Of a stretch of 64,000 nucleotides of DNA, positions 32,000-54,002 are shown piece by piece. This DNA comes from a phage. Position 1 is the stretch's first letter. Each line of letters starts with the position of its first letter. The notes under the pieces were generated by a model. That model did no database searches. It was not told where the DNA came from and was given only the letters and a program-made list of their open reading frames with translations. Position numbers and translations under genes: made by a program. The DNA lies in the sequence record PZ445488.1; one strand, given 5' to 3'.

Positions 32000-32029
32000 A
32001 CTATAACATAATCCTACCAAGATGTAAAC
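32000..32029 (-). promoter_or_regulatory. early promoter (GTTTAC, 18 bp, TATAGT) inside palindrome GGTAGGA/TCCTACC
   Basis: Minus strand reads GTTTACatcttggtaggattatgtTATAGTagtcctacc. Confidence 0.45.
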
Positions 32030-38193: not shown

Positions 38194-38523
38194 TTATACT
38201 CTAGGCTTTTGAGCTTGTTTGGTATTGGATTCCCATGCGGCTTTGGTAATTTTGTTAGCGGCATAGCCAAAGGCATTAGATAGAACACCTTTAGAGTTGA
38301 ATACATCCAATCCAATAAGTACACCTGCTGTGTTAAATTTAGGAGCAAAGTATGCATTAGTTTTAGAAAGAGCTTTTTTCAATTCAGGGTCTTGAACCAA
38401 GCCATCAAAAACGCCTTTACTATTTACTTTATATGTTACTTTGGGATTTTTACCTTCTTCGATAGCAGCTTTCTGTTCAGCAGATAATGTAACTTCAGTG
38501 ATAAATTCTTGATACATTTTCAT
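38194..38523 (-). CDS. internal-protein-like capsid-targeted protein (ipII/ipIII class)
   Basis: N-terminus MKMYQEFITE matches the T4 internal-protein capsid-targeting leader MKTYQEFIAE; adjacent to denV as in T4. Confidence 0.55.
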   Translation of the reverse strand: MKMYQEFITEVTLSAEQKAAIEEGKNPKVTYKVNSKGVFDGLVQDPELKKALSKTNAYFAPKFNTAGVLIGLDVFNSKGVLSNAFGYAANKITKAAWESNTKQAQKPRV

Positions 38524-38529
38524 TTTTCC

Positions 38530-38943
38530 TTAGTAAATTGATTTACCATAGTATTTGTACCAAGTCAGTCGTTGAGCAATTTTTTCATCTAAGCGTGCTT
38601 GACTTATCGCAATGGACGCTTCGGAAGGGACATAATTATTACGAAATTCGGCAGGGATGTCGGAAATATCCTGGACTGTCGTGTCCTTGATTTTGAAACC
38701 ACGTTTCAAGCATTCAGCGATTAGCTCGATTTGTCGTAAACGTAAAAATTCAAGTTTGTCGTAAAAGAATGTTACGTGACCTGTGCCTAAGATAAATGTT
38801 GGAGAGATTTTAAAATCCTTTACACGTTTACCGTTTTGAACATGTTTACGGACTGCACCAAATACGCGTGGTAATTCACGATACTCAGCCATAAGATGTT
38901 GGTCGGTCAGTTCAGAAACAAGTGTTAAATTGATACGGGTCAT
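38530..38943 (-). CDS. denV: endonuclease V (pyrimidine-dimer DNA glycosylase) DenV
   Basis: [35 protein letters not shown]... matches T4 DenV (138 aa) from ATG 38943; the track start 38955 is TTG. Confidence 0.9.
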
Positions 38944-38970
38944 AATTTCCTCCAAGTAGTTGATGAATGT

Positions 38971-39000
38971 ATAGTATCAAAGTCCTTGGAGGAAGTAAAC
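38971..39000 (-). promoter_or_regulatory. early promoter (GTTTAC, 18 bp, TACTAT) inside palindrome CCTCCAAG/CTTGGAGG that contains the denV RBS
   Basis: Minus strand reads GTTTACttcctccaaggactttgaTACTATacattcatcaactacttggaggaaattATG. Confidence 0.5.
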
Positions 39001-39001
39001 A

Positions 39002-39283
39002 CTATTTTTCTGAAGCGCCTGAAATATATTTTTCAAGACGTTGTTTCATTAACGAGCCGTTCTTAGCGATTTCTTCCGGTTTATCGCACATACGCAACAG
39101 TGCTTCAAGCTTAGCGATATCGCTGGTACGTTCAAATTTGCGAGTATCTATCTTACTGGCAAGTTCAGAAATACGTGCTAATAGACTTTCGGCTTCAACC
39201 AAAGCTGCACCTAGCTTAGTTGCAAATGTGTCAGTAGCTTCGTTAAGAATAGATTCTGATAAAAATTCACTATATGTTTTCAT
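39002..39283 (-). CDS. internal-protein-like capsid-targeted protein
   Basis: From ATG 39283: [20 protein letters not shown]...; the ATG overlaps the lysozyme stop (ATGA). Confidence 0.55.
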
Positions 39284-39768
39284 ATATACGCTTTCCAAGT
39301 TCCTGTTTTAAATGTTGAGATTACGCGTTTCGCGCGATTAGGTGTCTGACGATACCATTTAGATTGGGCTAGATTTACTGCCGCTTCATCCCAACGTTTC
39401 TGTTGAAGCATACGAAGAGAATTAGTAAAACCAGCAACGCCTGCTACACCCATTTGGAAGACCATATTGACCAATGCACATCGACGAACTGCATCTAAAG
39501 AATCATATACCGGTTTAAGTTTAGCATTACCCAAGATTCCGCGAACGGCTTTATCGACGTCTTCATTAAATAGCTTTTCAGCCTCATCAAGGGTAATTGT
39601 ACCGTTGCATTTACGACCGATCATTCTGTCAAGTTCAGCTTTAGCTACGGCTAAAGACGGGTTCTTTGTTACTAAATGGCCTATGCCAATCGTCCAAAAG
39701 CCTTCAGTGTCTTTGTATAAAGTCAGTCTAAGACCTTCGTCATTACGAAGCATTTCAAATATATTCAT
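39280..39768 (-). CDS. e: lysozyme (endolysin) gene e
   Basis: 162 aa; [32 protein letters not shown]... is about 80 percent identical to T4 lysozyme by eye; ATG at 39768. Confidence 0.95.
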
Positions 39769-46683: not shown

Positions 46684-47187
46684 TCATTTATTTTTAATTT
46701 TGCAAATTTTTCCAGCTTCGATACATGCAGCATAGATGATGCTCTGGGCAATTTTATTGCTAGTAGACCTTGCAATCACACTAAGAACAATTTCTTTTTC
46801 TTCACCACCACAACCCCAGGACCTTTGCTCATGAGTACCTTTAACTACGGCTGAAACTTCAACAGAACGTCCGCCATCAGAAGTTTTAACATCTACAACC
46901 CAATCGCCATCTTTCTCTTCAACCTGTGGTTTATCCCAAGAAATACTAATATATGATTCACTGTCAATAGAAGTCGCCGGGTTTTTCTTTACTGTAAGGC
47001 CTTCACTTTCCAGCCATTCAATAGTATTTGCGCATAAATCAGAAGAACACCTCATCGGAAACCGGCAAGATTTTTCACCTTTAGCTGCAGTGTTATACAT
47101 CTTTTCTAAAATACGCTTTTGCACGTTTTTAAAAATAGTTTCAGCAGATTCTTCAGATTTTTTATTCAGTTCAGTGTAAAGACTCAT
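46684..47187 (-). CDS. hypothetical protein (167 aa)
   Basis: ORF track frame from ATG 47187 (AGAGGAAAAT RBS); the track start 47376 would read through the promoter and terminator. Confidence 0.5.
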   Translation of the reverse strand: MSLYTELNKKSEESAETIFKNVQKRILEKMYNTAAKGEKSCRFPMRCSSDLCANTIEWLESEGLTVKKNPATSIDSESYISISWDKPQVEEKDGDWVVDVKTSDGGRSVEVSAVVKGTHEQRSWGCGGEEKEIVLSVIARSTSNKIAQSIIYAACIEAGKICKIKNK

Positions 47188-47215
47188 AATATTTTCCTCT
47201 GTGGTTGATAAATCT

Positions 47216-47244
47216 ATAGTATCACATCTAGGGAAGAAGTAAAC
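47216..47244 (-). promoter_or_regulatory. early promoter (GTTTAC, 17 bp, TACTAT)
   Basis: Minus strand reads GTTTACttcttccctagatgtgaTACTATagatttatc. Confidence 0.5.
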
Positions 47245-47275
47245 AACTTTTTCAGTAAGTTGTAGACCCCCTAAT

Positions 47276-47291
47276 GGGGACCGAAGTCCCC
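47276..47291 (-). terminator. UUCG-tetraloop hairpin GGGGAC-UUCG-GUCCCC (terminator or stability element)
   Basis: 3' of the 47297..47923 gene; paralogous to the hairpin at 29368..29385. Confidence 0.4.
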
Positions 47292-47296
47292 ATTCT

Positions 47297-47923
47297 TTAC
47301 TTACGAGTTTTTGCATACTGAGCAGCGTCAGCAGCCAAACGACCTGCTTGTCGAAGTTTTTCTTTAATCTCATCATGAAGTGGTTGAGTATACTTCAAAC
47401 CTTCGATAGTCAAATAAAGACGATAAAGGTCTGGGGTATCAAGGTTGTTGATATGTTGGCCATTACGAAGACTATTGAATTCACGAACGAGTGAAGATGT
47501 ATCAGATTCAATATCACGAACAAGCGAAGATAGTTGTTTATATTTTTTTTCCAGGCTAGAAGTATCAAACTTAAGAGCAGGAGCTTTAGGAGTTGCTTTT
47601 ACTTCCGGCTTAGGCTCAGGTTTTGCTACTGCTTTAGGGGTCGCAGGTTTAGGAGTGGTAGGAGCAGGTTTTACTTTAGGCGAACCAGATTTAGCAGAAA
47701 CACCACCACTAACAATATCTTTGAATGCTTTAGAAGCTCTGTAATATTCTTTTTGGCTGGAAGTGTCGATACCGTACATGGCTTGAACGTTTTTGAAAAA
47801 CTCTGTACTAGTTTTTGTACCAGAAATAGCATCGTAAGCAGCTTGCCATTTCTCTTTTGTCATACGTACACCGGCTTCGGTGATTACTTCCGTTTCGGCT
47901 AAAAATTCATTAAAAGTATACAT
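47297..47923 (-). CDS. internal-protein-like capsid-targeted protein (Lys/Pro/Ala-rich)
   Basis: 208 aa; N-terminus MYTFNEFLAE resembles the T4 internal-protein leader; a late promoter lies 36 nt upstream. Confidence 0.55.
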   Translation of the reverse strand: MYTFNEFLAETEVITEAGVRMTKEKWQAAYDAISGTKTSTEFFKNVQAMYGIDTSSQKEYYRASKAFKDIVSGGVSAKSGSPKVKPAPTTPKPATPKAVAKPEPKPEVKATPKAPALKFDTSSLEKKYKQLSSLVRDIESDTSSLVREFNSLRNGQHINNLDTPDLYRLYLTIEGLKYTQPLHDEIKEKLRQAGRLAADAAQYAKTRK

Positions 47924-47958
47924 TGATGGTCCTTAGAAAGTAGGTTTATTGTTTACTA

Positions 47959-47966
47959 TATTTATA
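47959..47966 (-). promoter_or_regulatory. late promoter motif TATAAATA (minus strand)
   Basis: Exact octamer directly after the terminator and 36 nt upstream of the 47923 ATG. Confidence 0.45.
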
Positions 47967-47967
47967 C

Positions 47968-47995
47968 AAAAAAGCCCCAACCTTTCGGAAGGGGC
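47968..47995 (-). terminator. rho-independent terminator (GCCCC-UUCCGAAAGGUU-GGGGC + U7)
   Basis: GC stem followed on the minus strand by TTTTTTTG; closes the tRNA / small-RNA region. Confidence 0.6.
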
Positions 47996-48038
47996 TATAT
48001 ACCTTGTCGGGGTTTCCACCTACTAGGTAAGTGTTTGT

Positions 48039-48130
48039 ACGAAACGCCGGGATTCGAACCCGGTTATTAAGCAGTTGACGCTACTCAATATTTTTAAAAG
48101 GCCATATCTCTACCATATCCGAACGTCCCG
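48039..48130 (-). ncRNA. tRNA-like element (canonical T-arm and acceptor-like ends; cloverleaf not resolved)
   Basis: Minus strand has CCGGG-TTCGAAT-CCCGG followed by CGTTTCG, which can pair with an upstream CGGGACG, but no consistent D or anticodon arm could be folded by eye. Confidence 0.3.
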
Positions 48131-48298
48131 TCAAAAACGCTACTCGGCTTACGGCAAAGATATTTCCTCGAATCGATAATTCTGTGCGCCGTTTCTGCTG
48201 TGATGTAAGGGGATATTAACGAATCATAAAGATTTATTAAGACCAGTCCTTACTCAGGGAACATCAGTCCGACGACTTGCCGGTAGCGACCCGGCTTC

Positions 48299-48643
48299 TT
48301 ATTTTGGCATATCATCAATTTGCTCTCGACGCCGATGCCATAGATTAATCGCTTCATAAACACATTCAGCATTTGGTATATGGCGACAATAGTATAGTGA
48401 TTCGCGTTTCTGGAACCGATGTTGCAATGGGATTTCGTTTAAAAGGTCTTTACGGTCAAAGTATTCAAAACTAGTTAACCCGGAACGGTTTTTAAGAAAC
48501 TTCCAATGGCCAAATTCATTTTGGAAATAAACGTAATCAGCGTGTTGATATAATGAATTAATCAACCGGTCGGAAATAACTGTATCCTGTTCGTTAAAAT
48601 AAAACGTTAAATCATGAACTACCAGATAAATATTACCTTTCAT
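48299..48643 (-). CDS. hypothetical protein (114 aa)
   Basis: ORF track frame from ATG 48643 (GAGGAAAAT RBS); the track start overlaps tRNA-Arg. Confidence 0.45.
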   Translation of the reverse strand: MKGNIYLVVHDLTFYFNEQDTVISDRLINSLYQHADYVYFQNEFGHWKFLKNRSGLTSFEYFDRKDLLNEIPLQHRFQKRESLYYCRHIPNAECVYEAINLWHRRREQIDDMPK

Positions 48644-48661
48644 ATTTTCCTCACTTGAAGT

Positions 48662-48738
<77 letters not shown>

Positions 48739-48741
48739 AAT

Positions 48742-48816
48742 TGGTGACCCTGGCTGGTTTCGATCCAGCTACCTATCAGTTATGAGCTGACAGCTCTCCC
48801 ATTGAGCTACAGGGCC
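48742..48816 (-). tRNA. tRNA with anticodon CAU (Met, or Ile after lysidine modification)
   Basis: Hand-folded: acceptor GGCCCTG/CAGGGTC, D-arm GCTC-AATGGGA-GAGC, anticodon loop CTCATAA, T-arm GCTGG-ATCGAAA-CCAGC, encoded CCA; 3 nt from tRNA-Arg. Confidence 0.75.
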
Positions 48817-48895
48817 TTAATAACTTTCTATTATGAAAGGCACTTTAGAGCACCTTTGGTAATAGAGGGTATGAATTAATAATAACACATAATTC

Positions 48896-49411
48896 TTAAA
48901 GCAAATCAATCATTTTAACAGTTGGCAAAACAATTTCTTCTTCAATATAAGCAAATTCGACACGTTCAACTACACGCAAGAAATCGTAATCATAGTATTC
49001 AGAAGCATAGCCAAGAATATCAATAAGTCCTTGAGATATCTCATCGCCTTTCACAAAGAACAGGTCGAATACGCGGGCTTCGTCTTCTTCAGATTTATCA
49101 CCAAGGTCTACTTCGATGCCAAAGACCTTTTTAATAAATTCCGGTTGGAGTTGGTCTGAGAACAGTCCTTCAACCAGATATTCGTAGATAATAAGCGAGC
49201 AACGACCGAATGGTGTATTACCGCAATAACGTTCGGCTTTGGTGCTAGAATGACGGCTCTTAAATTTCTTCAAGAGATATTTAAACTGTTGGAGCTCATG
49301 CTCTTCCACTTCAAACAATGTTTTGGTTTTATAGTTGTCACCATCACTTTCATAGGTAGTGACATCAATTACGTAGCCCTTAGGAATTGTACTGCCTAAT
49401 CGAATATTCAT
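48896..49411 (-). CDS. hypothetical protein (171 aa)
   Basis: ORF track. Confidence 0.5.
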   Translation of the reverse strand: MNIRLGSTIPKGYVIDVTTYESDGDNYKTKTLFEVEEHELQQFKYLLKKFKSRHSSTKAERYCGNTPFGRCSLIIYEYLVEGLFSDQLQPEFIKKVFGIEVDLGDKSEEDEARVFDLFFVKGDEISQGLIDILGYASEYYDYDFLRVVERVEFAYIEEEIVLPTVKMIDLL

Positions 49412-49415
49412 TTAA

Positions 49416-49706
49416 TCACCGTACCATATTAATGTAATTATATTCAATGCAACGTAATTTCAAAGGATTCTTGAAAATATCATATTCAAGAGGGCCTTTT
49501 TCTGTTTCAATAAAGAAATCAAAGTTAACTGTGTTAAATTTATCATCTTCACAGAGTAATTTAACCTGTGAAGACGAACGGTCAATGTAAACCTTTTCAA
49601 CTTCAAAATATGTTAAAATGCCATAATCATCGACTAGTGCTTTAGCTGCACGTTGATCGCTTTCGTATCCATTCTCGACAGATTTTACTTTAGCATAAAG
49701 AATCAT
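49416..49706 (-). CDS. hypothetical protein (96 aa)
   Basis: ORF track. Confidence 0.45.
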   Translation of the reverse strand: MILYAKVKSVENGYESDQRAAKALVDDYGILTYFEVEKVYIDRSSSQVKLLCEDDKFNTVNFDFFIETEKGPLEYDIFKNPLKLRCIEYNYINMVR

Positions 49707-50083
49707 GAGTGTTCCACCACTTCAAAGGTATGAGCATCAACAATATGATACCAGTCAAAATTTTCTTCTGCGTTTTTATAAATTTCGCGAAGAGCTTCAA
49801 CAGTTTTTCCTGTAGCAACAAGGTCGTCAATACCACCAAGAGGATAACAGTCATAACCAGCAAACAGAAGGAAATTAATAGTTTCTGTAGGTTCTGGATG
49901 CAAAACACCATTATCATCTACCACTTCAAAGAAAGTGTAAGAAGGAGTACAAGTTTTAATCCAGGCCCATGCTTGAGCTGCTGAATCAAACGGATTACGG
50001 AATAAACGACAATCCGGGTCTTTAGAAGGATTTGCTTCAAAATCCGCATATATGTGATATTTCATTTTACTCACCTTTTGCAA
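49703..50083 (-). CDS. hypothetical protein (126 aa)
   Basis: ORF track. Confidence 0.5.
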   Translation of the reverse strand: MQKVSKMKYHIYADFEANPSKDPDCRLFRNPFDSAAQAWAWIKTCTPSYTFFEVVDDNGVLHPEPTETINFLLFAGYDCYPLGGIDDLVATGKTVEALREIYKNAEENFDWYHIVDAHTFEVVEHS

Positions 50084-50273
50084 TTTTATCCATAACGATA
50101 GCGATTAAGCCGATTAGAAATGCTACTACCAATGAGATAGAGTTTTCAGTTGTTGTCAGTAGTCCACAAATGAATCCTACAAACATCGAAAAACTAAAAG
50201 CCATTGAAGCAATTACTACAGCAACATTACGAATCAGTTCAGCGCGTTTCATTTTATTTCTCCATTTACTCAT
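50067..50273 (-). CDS. small membrane protein (68 aa)
   Basis: ORF track; two hydrophobic segments; ATG 50273 with GGAG RBS. Confidence 0.45.
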   Translation of the reverse strand: MSKWRNKMKRAELIRNVAVVIASMAFSFSMFVGFICGLLTTTENSISLVVAFLIGLIAIVMDKIAKGE

Positions 50274-50289
50274 TTGATTTGATAGGACT

Positions 50290-50316
50290 ACTATAACATA
50301 GTCCTATCATGTAAAC
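50290..50316 (-). promoter_or_regulatory. promoter-like element (GTTTAC, short 14-15-bp spacer, TATAGT) in palindrome GATAGGACTA/TAGTCCTATC
   Basis: Same element family as 50618..50647, but the spacer is about 3 bp shorter; probably weak or inactive. Confidence 0.3.
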
Positions 50317-50318
50317 TA

Positions 50319-50582
50319 TTAAATACCAGCTTCGCGTTTAACATAATCGACGTAAGCTTGGATAGCTTTCTTGCTGGTAATTTTTACCTGGCCTCGTCCG
50401 TTGCCTTCTTTAGAGTTTTTCTTAACAACTACATTACCATCTTTAACACCCCATACATGGACATAAGTACCGATGTTTCGGTCGTAGAACATTGCATGGT
50501 CGTTGTTGTAAGAGAATGATTCGTAGTTCTCTGACAGAGTAGAAGATTGAGATTCAGCGATAAATTCTTTATAGGTTTTCAT
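50319..50582 (-). CDS. internal-protein-like capsid-targeted protein (ipI class by position)
   Basis: 87 aa; N-terminus MKTYKEFIAE is a near-exact match to the T4 internal-protein leader; next to 57B as T4 ipI is. Confidence 0.55.
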   Translation of the reverse strand: MKTYKEFIAESQSSTLSENYESFSYNNDHAMFYDRNIGTYVHVWGVKDGNVVVKKNSKEGNGRGQVKITSKKAIQAYVDYVKREAGI

Positions 50583-50617
50583 TTGTTTTTCCGTTTGGTT
50601 GTTGATTTGATAGGACT

Positions 50618-50647
50618 ACTATAACATAGTCCTATCAGCATGTAAAC
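50618..50647 (-). promoter_or_regulatory. early promoter (GTTTAC, 18 bp, TATAGT) in palindrome GATAGGACTA/TAGTCCTATC
   Basis: Minus strand reads GTTTACatgctgataggactatgtTATAGTagtcctatc. Confidence 0.45.
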
Positions 50648-50650
50648 TAC

Positions 50651-50938
50651 TTACAGAAGAGTTTTTGCAATAATTTTAAGCTGAGCTACAGAAATATGCT
50701 TAGCTTTAAACAGTGCGGTCTCTTCGGCCGGAGAGATAACAACAGTAGCGCCATCTTTCTTAGCAGACCATCCGTCCCCTAAGTAAACAGTACCTTTTAC
50801 TTCTTCACCATCAACCAGACTAATCATCGGTTTACCCTCACGTCCTTTATTTGCTTTAATAACTTCGGAAGTAAGGGTTGCTTCGGTCAGAGTAGAAACG
50901 TTAGCAACAGGTGATATAAATTCTTTATAGGTTTTCAT
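50651..50938 (-). CDS. internal-protein-like capsid-targeted protein (second tandem copy)
   Basis: 95 aa; N-terminus MKTYKEFISP. Confidence 0.55.
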   Translation of the reverse strand: MKTYKEFISPVANVSTLTEATLTSEVIKANKGREGKPMISLVDGEEVKGTVYLGDGWSAKKDGATVVISPAEETALFKAKHISVAQLKIIAKTLL

Positions 50939-50972
50939 TTTATTTCCTTGAGGTTGTTTATTTGATAGGATG

Positions 50973-51002
50973 ATAGTATCACACCATCATCCTTATGTAA
51001 AC
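50973..51002 (-). promoter_or_regulatory. early promoter (GTTTAC, 18 bp, TACTAT) in palindrome AGGATGAT/ATCATCCT
   Basis: Minus strand reads GTTTACataaggatgatggtgtgaTACTATcatcctatc. Confidence 0.5.
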
Positions 51003-51015
51003 TGTTTTGTGAAAA

Positions 51016-51701
<686 letters not shown>

Positions 51702-51705
51702 TTTA

Positions 51706-52440
51706 TTACCTTAAGATTGTTTCAATTTTAGAATAAAGCTCTTCTAAAGAGCCGTCGTTTGTAATAACTAAATCGCCTTCTTCAATAGGCAACCCAGCTT
51801 CTGTAATATGTTTATCGGTGGATTCCGTACCAGAGCGAACCACATGAATAACTGTAGCACCCATCGCTCTAGCGGTTTCCATTTCATGGACTTGGCGTGT
51901 ATCGGTTACAACATAGTAATCGAAATCACTTCCAATATAATCCATATAATTTAATGCAAAAAGTTTAACCCAATACATACGGTCAAATAAATTAACGACA
52001 ACATCCGTACCGAGGGCTTGCATAAGACGGCGGATTGACCATGTGTCGTTGATATTATTTATAGCTTCACGCAGGGCTTCATATGGTTTAATATCTAGAT
52101 ATGAATATCCACCTTCTAACGATGATAATACTTTAACATTATTAATTGGTAAATATTGACTTTGTAAATAAATTAGCGCTTCTTCCAATAATTCAATAAC
52201 ATCCAACTTATTGAGATTTAATGGTGTTTCACGGTCATATCCAACACCTTCAAAGTATTCGTATTTCAACTCGGTGAATACGTTGGGGTTTTCAGCATGT
52301 TTACGCTCCCAGGCTATTGCTAGAGCGTCTTTAATTGGATATGCCAATTGGTATTTTACGGATTTAAAGTTTGAATTGATGTAATCAGCAGTAGTGTCTT
52401 TACCACTACGTTTGATGCCACTTAAAAAGATTAGCTCCAT
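51706..52440 (-). CDS. 1: deoxynucleoside monophosphate kinase gp1
   Basis: 244 aa; P-loop GIKRSGKDT; synteny 57A-1-3-2-4. Confidence 0.85.
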   Translation of the reverse strand: MELIFLSGIKRSGKDTTADYINSNFKSVKYQLAYPIKDALAIAWERKHAENPNVFTELKYEYFEGVGYDRETPLNLNKLDVIELLEEALIYLQSQYLPINNVKVLSSLEGGYSYLDIKPYEALREAINNINDTWSIRRLMQALGTDVVVNLFDRMYWVKLFALNYMDYIGSDFDYYVVTDTRQVHEMETARAMGATVIHVVRSGTESTDKHITEAGLPIEEGDLVITNDGSLEELYSKIETILR

Positions 52441-52493: not shown

Positions 52494-53084
52494 TTAACGC
52501 AAAGAAGGGTGTCTAGAAATGGATTTAGATTCGACCGCTTGACGTGGTTGTTGAGATACAATGACTTCGCCGTCTTTTTCTATCGTCATATACGCGAAGT
52601 GAATAGTTGCTACGCACGTAACGGCAGGGTCAGAATCTTCAGTGTAACTAAATTCAATTTCGCTCAGATCGGAAATCCATGGTTTATAGAAATTCGCAGT
52701 CAAAACTACTTCGGTCTTATTGTTGTTTAAAATGTGCAAAGTAACAAACTCAGGACCATCGGCATGTGCCGTATTATGTCCGGTTATATAGTTATTAGTG
52801 CTGAGCATCCATTTATACATGTTCATCCAGGACGTCATGTCTTCATCAACTATAAATCGTACAATAAAAGGGTCATATTCAAATGTAGTGCCTGCACGCA
52901 TTGCACGCCCTAGCCCCATTGTGCCTGTCACAGTTTCAACAACAGGAATTCTCACACCTGGCAGTGGAGCCGTTTGGGCATTGAGCACAAAACCTGAAGT
53001 TCGTGTACTATCCGGGATATCCACAACAAAGTTTGTTATATTTGTTTGGTTAAAAATCTGTCTCGCTGGACGAGTCATAAGCAC
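52494..53084 (-). CDS. 3: tail completion / sheath stabiliser gp3-like (by synteny)
   Basis: ORF track; position between genes 1 and 2. Confidence 0.5.
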   Translation of the reverse strand: MLMTRPARQIFNQTNITNFVVDIPDSTRTSGFVLNAQTAPLPGVRIPVVETVTGTMGLGRAMRAGTTFEYDPFIVRFIVDEDMTSWMNMYKWMLSTNNYITGHNTAHADGPEFVTLHILNNNKTEVVLTANFYKPWISDLSEIEFSYTEDSDPAVTCVATIHFAYMTIEKDGEVIVSQQPRQAVESKSISRHPSLR

Positions 53085-53180: not shown

Positions 53181-54002
53181 TTAAGATTTCCAAACAGTAT
53201 TCGCAGAGAAACGTTTTCCTTTTGACATAAACTGCTGAGTAGGTAACATGATTATGTTAGCCCAGTCTTTAGGAGCGATTTCTGTTATTGTTCCTCTAAT
53301 GTGGCCTGGCAGGTATGCTTTAATCATTTTGTCAGCACCTTGAAATCCTTTCACCTTGCTCCAGTCTATCTTCAACTTTGTGTTATTAGTAATAGTAGTT
53401 GTGCTAGCATATTGCTTCAGCAATTCTTCAAGAAACTGTTGTCGTGCTTTAGGTGGGATATAGTGCAAGTTTAACCCATACATCAAATTATGTTTACCTA
53501 ATCCTAAATAAATAATCAAAGGATATCTGTCCCAATACGGCAGAGTATCTTTATGTTTAGCATCATACACGTAAGTATAAATTTTGCCTGGCGTAGGCTT
53601 GACTACTTTATGACCTTTTACACTTTTCTTAATTGTTTCAACAAACCACTTAGATGATTTGTTGTTTACTGCTGCGCCTTCATTTCTAATCTTTTCTCGT
53701 ATTGAACTGCGAAACGAGTTTATCATCAGAAGTTGACGTTCTTGCTTATTAAGTTTATTTTTAGGTTTAGATTCAAGCGTTTCAATTTTCTGTGCAGTCT
53801 TAATAGATGATGCATATCTAGACATTGCAGATGTAAACGACGAGTATTTTATTCCTTTTGATTCTGCAAATGCTTTTGCAGTGATTCCTTTCTCTTTAGC
53901 TTTCTTGTATTCTAATCCTATCTCAATCCATTTTCTTTCATTCATAGACTGAGCAATCTTAGGGGCTTGTACGCCTTCAGATATAATTTGGAATATGCTC
54001 AT
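53181..54002 (-). CDS. 2: DNA end-protector protein gp2
   Basis: 273 aa; length and position match T4 gp2. Confidence 0.7.

Follow-up and report, generated by a model that had tools for sequence, protein, structure and literature searches.

The 64,000-nucleotide (nt) stretch of phage DNA in sequence record PZ445488.1, hereafter called the window, carries two small open reading frames (ORFs) in tandem at the position that T-even phages use for the internal-protein gene ipI. An initial annotation had placed ORFs of 87 and 95 amino acids (aa) here, and the computed ORF list agrees with both, at 50319-50582 and 50651-50938. As set out below, the 95-aa ORF corresponds to ipI itself, whereas the 87-aa ORF is best regarded as a candidate internal protein (IP) of a different kind, carried on a cassette between two copies of a promoter repeat. 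A fragment of Escherichia phage CEV1 matches the window with 100% identity and Mosigvirus phage 55 matches it with 99%, which places the DNA in an RB69-like (Mosigvirus) T-even phage. The whole gene neighborhood around both ORFs lies on the minus strand and is composed as follows.

53181-54002, minus strand: gp2
52494-53084, minus strand: gp3
51706-52440, minus strand: gp1, deoxynucleoside monophosphate (dNMP) kinase
51471-51701, minus strand: 57A
51016-51471, minus strand: 57B, the anti-CBASS phosphodiesterase Acb1 (Pfam PF23474 Acb1, 6.5e-59), fixed left-hand border of the ipI locus
50967-51002, minus strand: ipI promoter-hairpin
50651-50938, minus strand: ipI, 95 aa
50602-50650, minus strand: upstream copy of the GATAGGACTA repeat, promoter of the 87-aa gene
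50319-50582, minus strand: 87-aa candidate internal protein
50274-50318, minus strand: downstream copy of the GATAGGACTA repeat, promoter of the trna.4 homolog
50067-50273, minus strand: trna.4 homolog, a small membrane protein (phrog_1692), the fixed border on the right-hand side of the cassette slot

The order 2-3-1-57A-57B-ipI-X-trna.4 is the same as in T4 except for X, the 87-aa ORF. In T4 the genes here run 1, 57A, 57B, ipI, trna.4, trna.3 and trna.2, with trna.4 directly after ipI; T4 trna.4 is the '6.6 kDa protein in segB-ipI region'. Beyond the trna.4 homolog there are more small ORFs and then tRNA genes. The homolog has two in-frame ATG codons, at 50252 and 50273, and its relatives are annotated as genes of either 186 or 207 nt. 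The ATG at 50273 overlaps the tail of the promoter-hairpin repeat, and translation probably starts at 50252.

The identity of the 95-aa ORF is the most secure result at this locus. Its residues 20-95 match positions 1-76 of the 76-position Pfam profile PF11634 (IPI_T4) with an E-value of 3.2e-50 and 168.4 bits (cut-off 25), which covers the whole mature domain. From A20 onward the ORF aligns with mature IPI* (PDB 2JUB; 8e-42), with 72 of 76 residues identical (95%), and it is 87% identical to the T4 IPI precursor. The cleavage register is kept, reading ...STLTE|ATLTSEV here and ...STITE|ATLTSEV in the T4 precursor. Thus the leader occupies residues 1-19 (nt 50882-50938) and ends in LTE, and the mature IPI* of residues 20-95 has a computed isoelectric point (pI) of 9.0. 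Related genomes annotate the gene as ipI or as a nuclease inhibitor. Judged by these comparisons, the 95-aa ORF is the ortholog of T4 and RB69 IPI.

T4 IPI has been reported to inhibit GmrSD-type restriction after injection (PMC12373910). Protection from GmrSD restriction has been reported for RB69 IPI (PMC6024577), which differs from T4 IPI* at four residues; the 95-aa ORF shows the same number of differences. Because the orthology to T4 and RB69 IPI is strong, we infer that the IPI of this phage inhibits a GmrSD-type restriction enzyme after injection. The two genes are alike in the mature part, in the LTE|A register, in the position after 57B and in the upstream promoter-hairpin architecture; they differ in the propeptide, which is MKTYKEFISPVANVSTLTE here and MKTFKEFTSTTTPVSTITE in T4. 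Unlike T4, the phage that carries this IPI is a Mosigvirus, a group reported to have arabinosylated rather than glucosylated cytosines (PMC6024577, PMC13390438).

Both ORFs begin with MKTYKEFI and diverge later, as first described, and BLASTP confirms both points, but the common part reaches well beyond the first eight residues. Residues 1-18 of the 87-aa protein align with residues 1-19 of the 95-aa protein (12/19 identical; MKTYKEFIAE-SQSSTLSE versus MKTYKEFISPVANVSTLTE), and nothing was aligned by BLASTP beyond residue 18/19. The common part is therefore the whole propeptide, including its second L-x-E site. In their DNA, the two genes also agree at 28 of the 30 nt that surround the start codons (repeat D2). 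Since only the leader is common to the two ORFs, a duplication of ipI was rejected, and the description of a 'doubled locus' gives way to that of an unrelated body inserted as a repeat-flanked cassette, in a slot that is empty or holds Ip7 in sister phages.

The evidence for a cassette comes from the repeats and from these sister phages. On either side of the 87-aa gene lies a GATAGGACTA element, and the two make up a direct repeat of 45/48 nt, composed of a 36-nt and an 11-nt perfect match with a 3-nt indel between them; the copies are spaced 328/331 nt apart. When the 971-nt trna.4-ipI interval was used as a query, many Mosigviruses, among them Bas46, HX01, phiC120, mar005P1 and MM02, matched in two pieces that together span about 643 nt, 328 nt less than the query. 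In Bas46 the ipI stop codon is followed by a single repeat copy with an 18-nt spacer and then by the trna.4 leader region. This lone copy, described as a hybrid, is identical to the copy at 50602-50650. From its sequence, the Bas46 allele has the form expected of the product of recombination between the repeats, or of the target that preceded integration of a circle. A third group of phages (Mizar, the LF82 phages and Shf125875) carries Ip7, a protein of 102 aa beginning MKTYKEFINE, in the slot that the 87-aa gene fills here, with the same element upstream of it; Ip7 is found in 284 records. Given the empty (Bas46), 87-aa and Ip7 alleles, the slot has at least three states among near-identical phages. 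The ipI locus, in which the 87-aa gene lies, is known to be hypervariable (PMC2839356).

Each gene stands behind a GTTTAC promoter set in a palindrome, as had been proposed, and both the promoter scan and the folding z-scores agree with this. However, there are three such elements on the minus strand rather than two, each with a TG-extended -10 and a stem of 8-11 bp. They are listed here with spacers of 18 and 15 nt counted from GTTTAC.

50967-51002, minus strand: ipI element; GTTTAC 51002-50997; 8-bp arms AGGATGAT/ATCATCCT at 50993-50986 and 50974-50967; -10 TACTAT 50978-50973; 18-nt spacer
50602-50650, minus strand: element of the 87-aa gene; GTTTAC 50647-50642; 11-bp arms TGATAGGACTA/TAGTCCTATCA at 50637-50627 and 50618-50608; -10 TATAGT 50623-50618; 18-nt spacer
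50274-50318, minus strand: trna.4 element; GTTTAC 50316-50311; arms at 50309-50299 and 50290-50280; -10 TATAGT 50295-50290; 3-nt deletion leaving a 15-nt spacer

The copy with the shortened spacer had been assigned to the first ip gene, but it lies downstream of that gene and serves the trna.4 homolog. With the genes on the minus strand, the ipI promoter with its AGGATGAT palindrome falls outside the span 50319-50938 that was first given. The elements follow a common plan, namely an AT-rich stretch, GTTTAC, the left arm, the TG-extended -10 in the loop, the right arm, ATCAAA, a Shine-Dalgarno sequence and ATG AAA. In the 3.1 kb scanned, the best sigma-70-like promoter is TTTACA-17-TATAGT with TG, that of the 87-aa gene, at 10/12 matches, and TTTACA-17-TACTAT with TG, that of ipI, was also detected. 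Predicted RNA folds are stable for the ipI element (-16.6 kcal/mol, z = -3.18), the element of the 87-aa gene (-19.4 kcal/mol, z = -4.0) and the trna.4 element (-19.1 kcal/mol, z = -4.35). This architecture recurs at the equivalent positions of T4 and phage Mizar, where the arms differ in sequence yet remain complementary. Over seven elements, 81.6% of cells are paired, compared with 32-58% when the arms are slid, and in 5 of the 11 pairs both bases have changed, which gives modest support to the view that the stem itself may be under selection. A permissive Rfam scan of 49900-51200 returned only a sub-threshold match to RAGATH-35 (21 bits versus 38.9), and the hairpins correspond to no described RNA family.

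The interpretation that best accommodates these observations, with a probability of roughly 0.65, is that this phage would inject IPI together with a separate, leader-tagged 87-aa protein, encoded on a cassette that is shuffled by way of the promoter-hairpin repeats. In this model, ipI, the 87-aa gene and the trna.4 homolog would each be transcribed from a T4 early-type promoter whose -10 sits in a hairpin loop. The IPI leader would target the protein to the prohead core, gp21 would cut after LTE19, and the mature protein would be injected with the DNA and inhibit a GmrSD-type enzyme. The leader of the 87-aa protein would similarly lead to packaging, processing by gp21 after E10 and/or E18, and injection, and the protein would most likely act on a first-response host defense other than the target of IPI. 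Homologous recombination between repeats, or the integration and excision of a circle made of one repeat plus the ORF, could add or remove the 328-nt cassette, and recombination within the common 24-nt leader coding sequence could place different bodies behind the same leader.

The part of this model that assigns a recombination role to the palindromes has to be weighed against the possibility that they are mainly RNA-level 3' hairpins, which end or stabilize the upstream transcript and serve as recombination substrates only incidentally. Such elements have been described as composite terminator/promoter motifs (Comeau et al. 2014, PMC4122927). Furthermore, the hairpins are stable, lie 8-14 nt past the ipI and 87-aa stop codons and show compensatory changes, and the full hairpin would form only in read-through RNA, not in transcripts that start from the embedded -10. 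Intrinsic termination was nevertheless rejected as the principal reading of the hairpins, because the three stems are followed by AAATCAA or AAATAAA instead of a U-tract, and a terminator scan at the three hairpins found none. Against this alternative also stands the position of the indel junctions, which fall exactly within the repeats; the repeats therefore act as recombination substrates whatever else they may do. The RNA and recombination roles are not exclusive, and a mainly RNA-level purpose is possible, if well short of an even chance.

Several features of the 87-aa ORF argue for packaging. Its leader, residues 1-18 (nt 50529-50582), consists of MKTYKEFIAE followed by SQSSTLSE. The first part is identical at 9 of 10 residues to the leaders of T4 IPII and IPIII, both of which read MKTYQEFIAE. 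In T4, the first 10 residues of IPIII suffice for packaging, with positions 4 and 7 involved in targeting and positions 8 and 10 in processing, and the prohead protease gp21 cuts after L/I-x-E (PMC9026906). The corresponding residues Y4, F7, I8 and E10 are all retained in the 87-aa protein. L/I-x-E motifs occur as IAE (residues 8-10) and LSE (residues 16-18), and a scan of the body of the ORF for this motif found none. The STLSE of the leader parallels the proven IPI site STLTE. In the allele of phage RPN187 (P0001), this site reads STLTE, the same as the proven IPI site, so that L-x-E is kept both ways. The predicted mature product, of 7.9-8.7 kDa, has a pI of 9.2-9.4, compared with 9.6 for IPII and 9.7 for Ip7. 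The ORF therefore has the properties by which T-even internal proteins are recognized, namely the residues of the capsid-targeting sequence (CTS), a gp21 motif, a place in a polymorphic IP locus and a small basic product. Given the leader residues, the L-x-E sites, the size and the pI, packaging and cleavage of the 87-aa protein are likely, and from the same sequence features we infer that it is packaged, processed by gp21 and injected.

The body behind this leader is unrelated to that of IPI. A search of Pfam and of solved structures with the 87-aa ORF gave no family and no structural relative; the ORF falls in phrog_13302, of unknown function. Comparison of its body with IPI* revealed no similarity in family or fold, since only the leader is common and the predicted fold is different. 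With tblastn the protein matches 36 of 50,697 phage records. Full-length matches (residues 1-87, at least 95% identity) make up 29 of these and come from about 25 distinct RB69-like phages; all are called 'hypothetical protein' or lack an annotation. The other seven are Dhakavirus records, representing four distinct phages, with 63% identity over residues 15-82. In Dhakavirus AnYang (MK234886, L003 2495-2716), the homolog is a 73-aa protein beginning MKTLNINSFFYNANTDHAMFF, encoded downstream of the gp52 topoisomerase subunit. This homolog is leaderless, because an in-frame stop codon lies 18 nt upstream of its ATG. The AnYang gene stands behind a GTTTAC-17-TACTAT promoter ending in ATAGACCTATCAAAAC, and downstream of it there is a AGGTCTAT/ATAGACCT hairpin with ...CCTATCAAATAAA. 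Flanking motifs of this kind are therefore found in another genus too, at another locus.

A word-indexed protein search for relatives of the 87-aa protein found only two clusters. When 1.8 billion cluster representatives were searched with a profile, six matched at E<=0.001: the proteins of Mosigvirus and Dhakavirus, a further three short relatives, and a 3562-aa protein that matched only locally. The leader is absent from all three short relatives, a count that leaves the 3562-aa protein aside. The genes for two of the three lie on T4-like contigs; genes for a DnaB-type helicase and an Rv2179c-like exonuclease are close to the first, and the second is beside Cef. In the alignment, the Mosigvirus protein is set apart by a 12-residue N-terminal insertion, TYKEFIAESQSS. 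Homologs of the body are 34-63% identical to it and share nine invariant columns. An AlphaFold2 (AF2) model has a mean predicted local distance difference test score (pLDDT) of 82, with blocks at 82-93 from residue 21 onward and values below 50 at residues 10-16; with three sequences the pLDDT was 46, and it rose to 82 when the three distant leaderless relatives were added. The model suggests a body of about 69 residues (~19-87) that is basic and combines a beta-sheet with a helix. On this sequence evidence, the 87-aa protein is, among the relatives inspected, the only leader-bearing member of an otherwise leaderless small family.

There are a number of observations that weigh against the injected-cassette interpretation. 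The inspected relatives of the 87-aa body do without the leader, which could therefore be dispensable. Only early-type promoters adjoin the 87-aa gene, although the same holds for ipI, which is packaged in T4. The nearest late motif on the coding strand, TATAAATA, lies 1.5 kb upstream at 52056-52063, inside gene 1. With respect to the cassette, the alleles do not show the direction of the event, since the cassette could have entered an empty site or been lost from a filled one, and the covariation test rests on only seven elements, three of which are closely related. Finally, NicPhage (OY726582) carries IPI and an identical 87-aa gene, and it is sensitive to the GmrSD-family enzyme BrxU (PMC13390438). 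Any anti-restriction target of the 87-aa protein is therefore not BrxU.

The T4 late-promoter -10 motif TATAAATA occurs eight times in the window compared with 7.4 expected, which is chance frequency. The occurrence at 52056-52063 is the nearest such motif upstream of 57A-57B-ipI and is a lead only for late ip expression.

Some of these observations could be taken together to mean that the 87-aa protein is an early cytoplasmic protein whose IP-type N-terminus is a by-product of recombination, with no role in packaging. The inspected short relatives are not only leaderless but located in early-gene regions, the 87-aa gene has an early-type promoter only, and IPIII without its CTS works inside the cell (PMC9391042). 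However, the leader is complete, with the four key positions and two L/I-x-E sites, and all 29 full-length tblastn matches retain it. The promoter argument is blunted by ipI, which has the same kind of promoter and yet is packaged. In addition, a 10-residue CTS alone packages green fluorescent protein, nucleases and other foreign proteins in T4 (PMC9026906); a leader-bearing protein that is present at prohead assembly should therefore be incorporated. A purely cytoplasmic protein is accordingly unlikely. Far less probable still is that the ORF is non-functional, as a chance ORF or a decaying remnant between promoter repeats: it has no Pfam family, no named function and the label 'hypothetical' in every record, but 29 records carry an intact copy at 95-100% identity, and it has the 34-63% homologs with nine invariant columns in other T4-like phages, yields a confident AF2 model, and is preceded by a good promoter of its own and by GGA 9 nt before the ATG.

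Under the injected-cassette interpretation, the function of the 87-aa protein can be approached by analogy. The GmrSD variant that is blocked differs between T4 Ip1, Ip2 and Ip3 (PMC12373910), and IPIII without the CTS is still active when expressed in the cytoplasm (PMC9391042), which indicates that body and leader are separable modules. Because the characterized T4 Ips inhibit GmrSD variants and IPIII works without its CTS, the 87-aa protein is most likely an injected effector against a first-response host defense. A more specific proposal is leader capture, in which a member of a leaderless early-protein family was recombined into the ipI promoter/leader module and thereby became an injected neutralizer of a defense other than the target of IPI and other than BrxU. 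This proposal is tentative, and we consider it somewhat less probable than its negation.

The ipI locus described here is an instance of the promoter/stem-loop shuffling of IP genes that is already known (Repoila 1994; Arbiol 2010; Comeau 2014). The two IP loci of T-even phages are highly variable (Repoila 1994, as cited in PMC2839356 and PMC4122927), and more than 30 IP variants are known (PMC2839356). Examples of ipI loci with more than one gene, together with the promoter/stem-loop repeats at their flanks, are on record from the same work. Their genes are associated with early-promoter/stem-loop elements that have been called 'analogous' to the promoter-early stem-loop elements (PeSLs) of phage RB49, not homologs of them (PMC2839356). 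In RB49 and phi1, pairs of PeSLs that flank an ORF excise as mini-circles (PMC4122927). The elements at the ipI locus resemble PeSLs in combining an early promoter with a stem-loop, in forming direct repeats around a single small ORF within a hyperplastic region, and in a presence/absence polymorphism whose junctions lie in the repeat, as expected from mini-circle integration and excision. They differ in having a GTTTAC-type -35 rather than TTGACA, in their AT-richer stems, and in a stem-loop that straddles the spacer and the -10, whereas in the PST drawing it lies just upstream of the promoter. Compared with the RB49/phi1 PeSL consensus (near-perfect TTGACA-N17-TATAAT with a G/C-rich stem), the ipI-locus elements do not qualify as homologs.

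Two other systems provide useful comparisons. Ip7 occupies the same slot between ipI and trna.4 as the 87-aa gene, shares with it the GATAGGACTA-type promoter-hairpin upstream and the 24-nt leader coding sequence, and is likewise small and basic. However, the bodies of the two proteins are unrelated, and Ip7 is widespread and named (284 records), whereas the 87-aa gene is rare (29 records) and unnamed. The engineered CTS fusions (Hong & Black 1993; Mullaney & Black 1996) similarly place a short IP leader before a body that is functional without it. They are packaged by the 10-residue leader of IPIII, and the 87-aa protein is likewise predicted to be packaged, to lose its leader through gp21 cleavage and to be injected. 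Unlike these fusions, the 87-aa ORF is natural and has an 18-residue leader with two candidate cleavage sites.

The known picture of T-even internal proteins is unchanged by this locus, which offers a case in which it can be tested. The first anti-defense molecules that a T-even phage delivers are its injected internal proteins, and most Ip variants beyond Ip1-Ip3 have no known target. The locus exposes an annotation gap, in that a candidate Ip has no name beyond 'hypothetical' in any of the 29 carrier records, and it offers a clean natural example of a cassette, with occupied, empty and Ip7 alleles in closely related phages. That one protein body occurs here with a leader and elsewhere without one bears on how an expressed effector might be converted to a pre-loaded one. 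If leader capture is true, the empty, Ip7 and 87-aa alleles in near-identical Mosigviruses make the reading directly testable. A search of the open-access literature did not find the 87-aa gene described as an IP candidate, the three-allele series of Mosigvirus or the leaderless family, although Repoila 1994 may list a related sequence. Strings from the 87-aa peptide likewise had no match in the literature and supplements searched, including Silas 2025.

A few additional features of the window are relevant to the surroundings of this locus. The gene next to ipI, 57B, encodes Acb1, a phosphodiesterase that acts on cyclic nucleotides to counter CBASS, and therefore known and candidate counter-defense genes are adjacent here. 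Over 47000-50000, ARAGORN found only tRNA-Arg(TCT) and tRNA-Met(CAT), at 48662-48816 on the minus strand; the annotation of phage 55 adds a tRNA-Lys further on, and the equivalent region of T4 has eight tRNAs. Further GTTTAC promoters on the minus strand at 32029, 27863 and 17284 have an 8-9-bp hairpin across the spacer and the -10, with examples such as TTGGTAGGA...TCCTACCAA and AGGTCTAT...ATAGACCTATCAA, and end in CCTA(T/C)C. The promoter-hairpin design therefore extends beyond the ipI locus.

A second IP locus is present at 38194-39283 on the minus strand, where two ORFs flank denV (38530-38955) downstream of the lysozyme gene e (39280-39768). The first, of 93 aa at 39002-39283, belongs to phrog_3499 ('internal head protein'). 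The other, of 109 aa at 38194-38523, begins MKMYQEFITE and belongs to phrog_3966 ('unknown function'); it looks like another unannotated, leader-bearing IP candidate.

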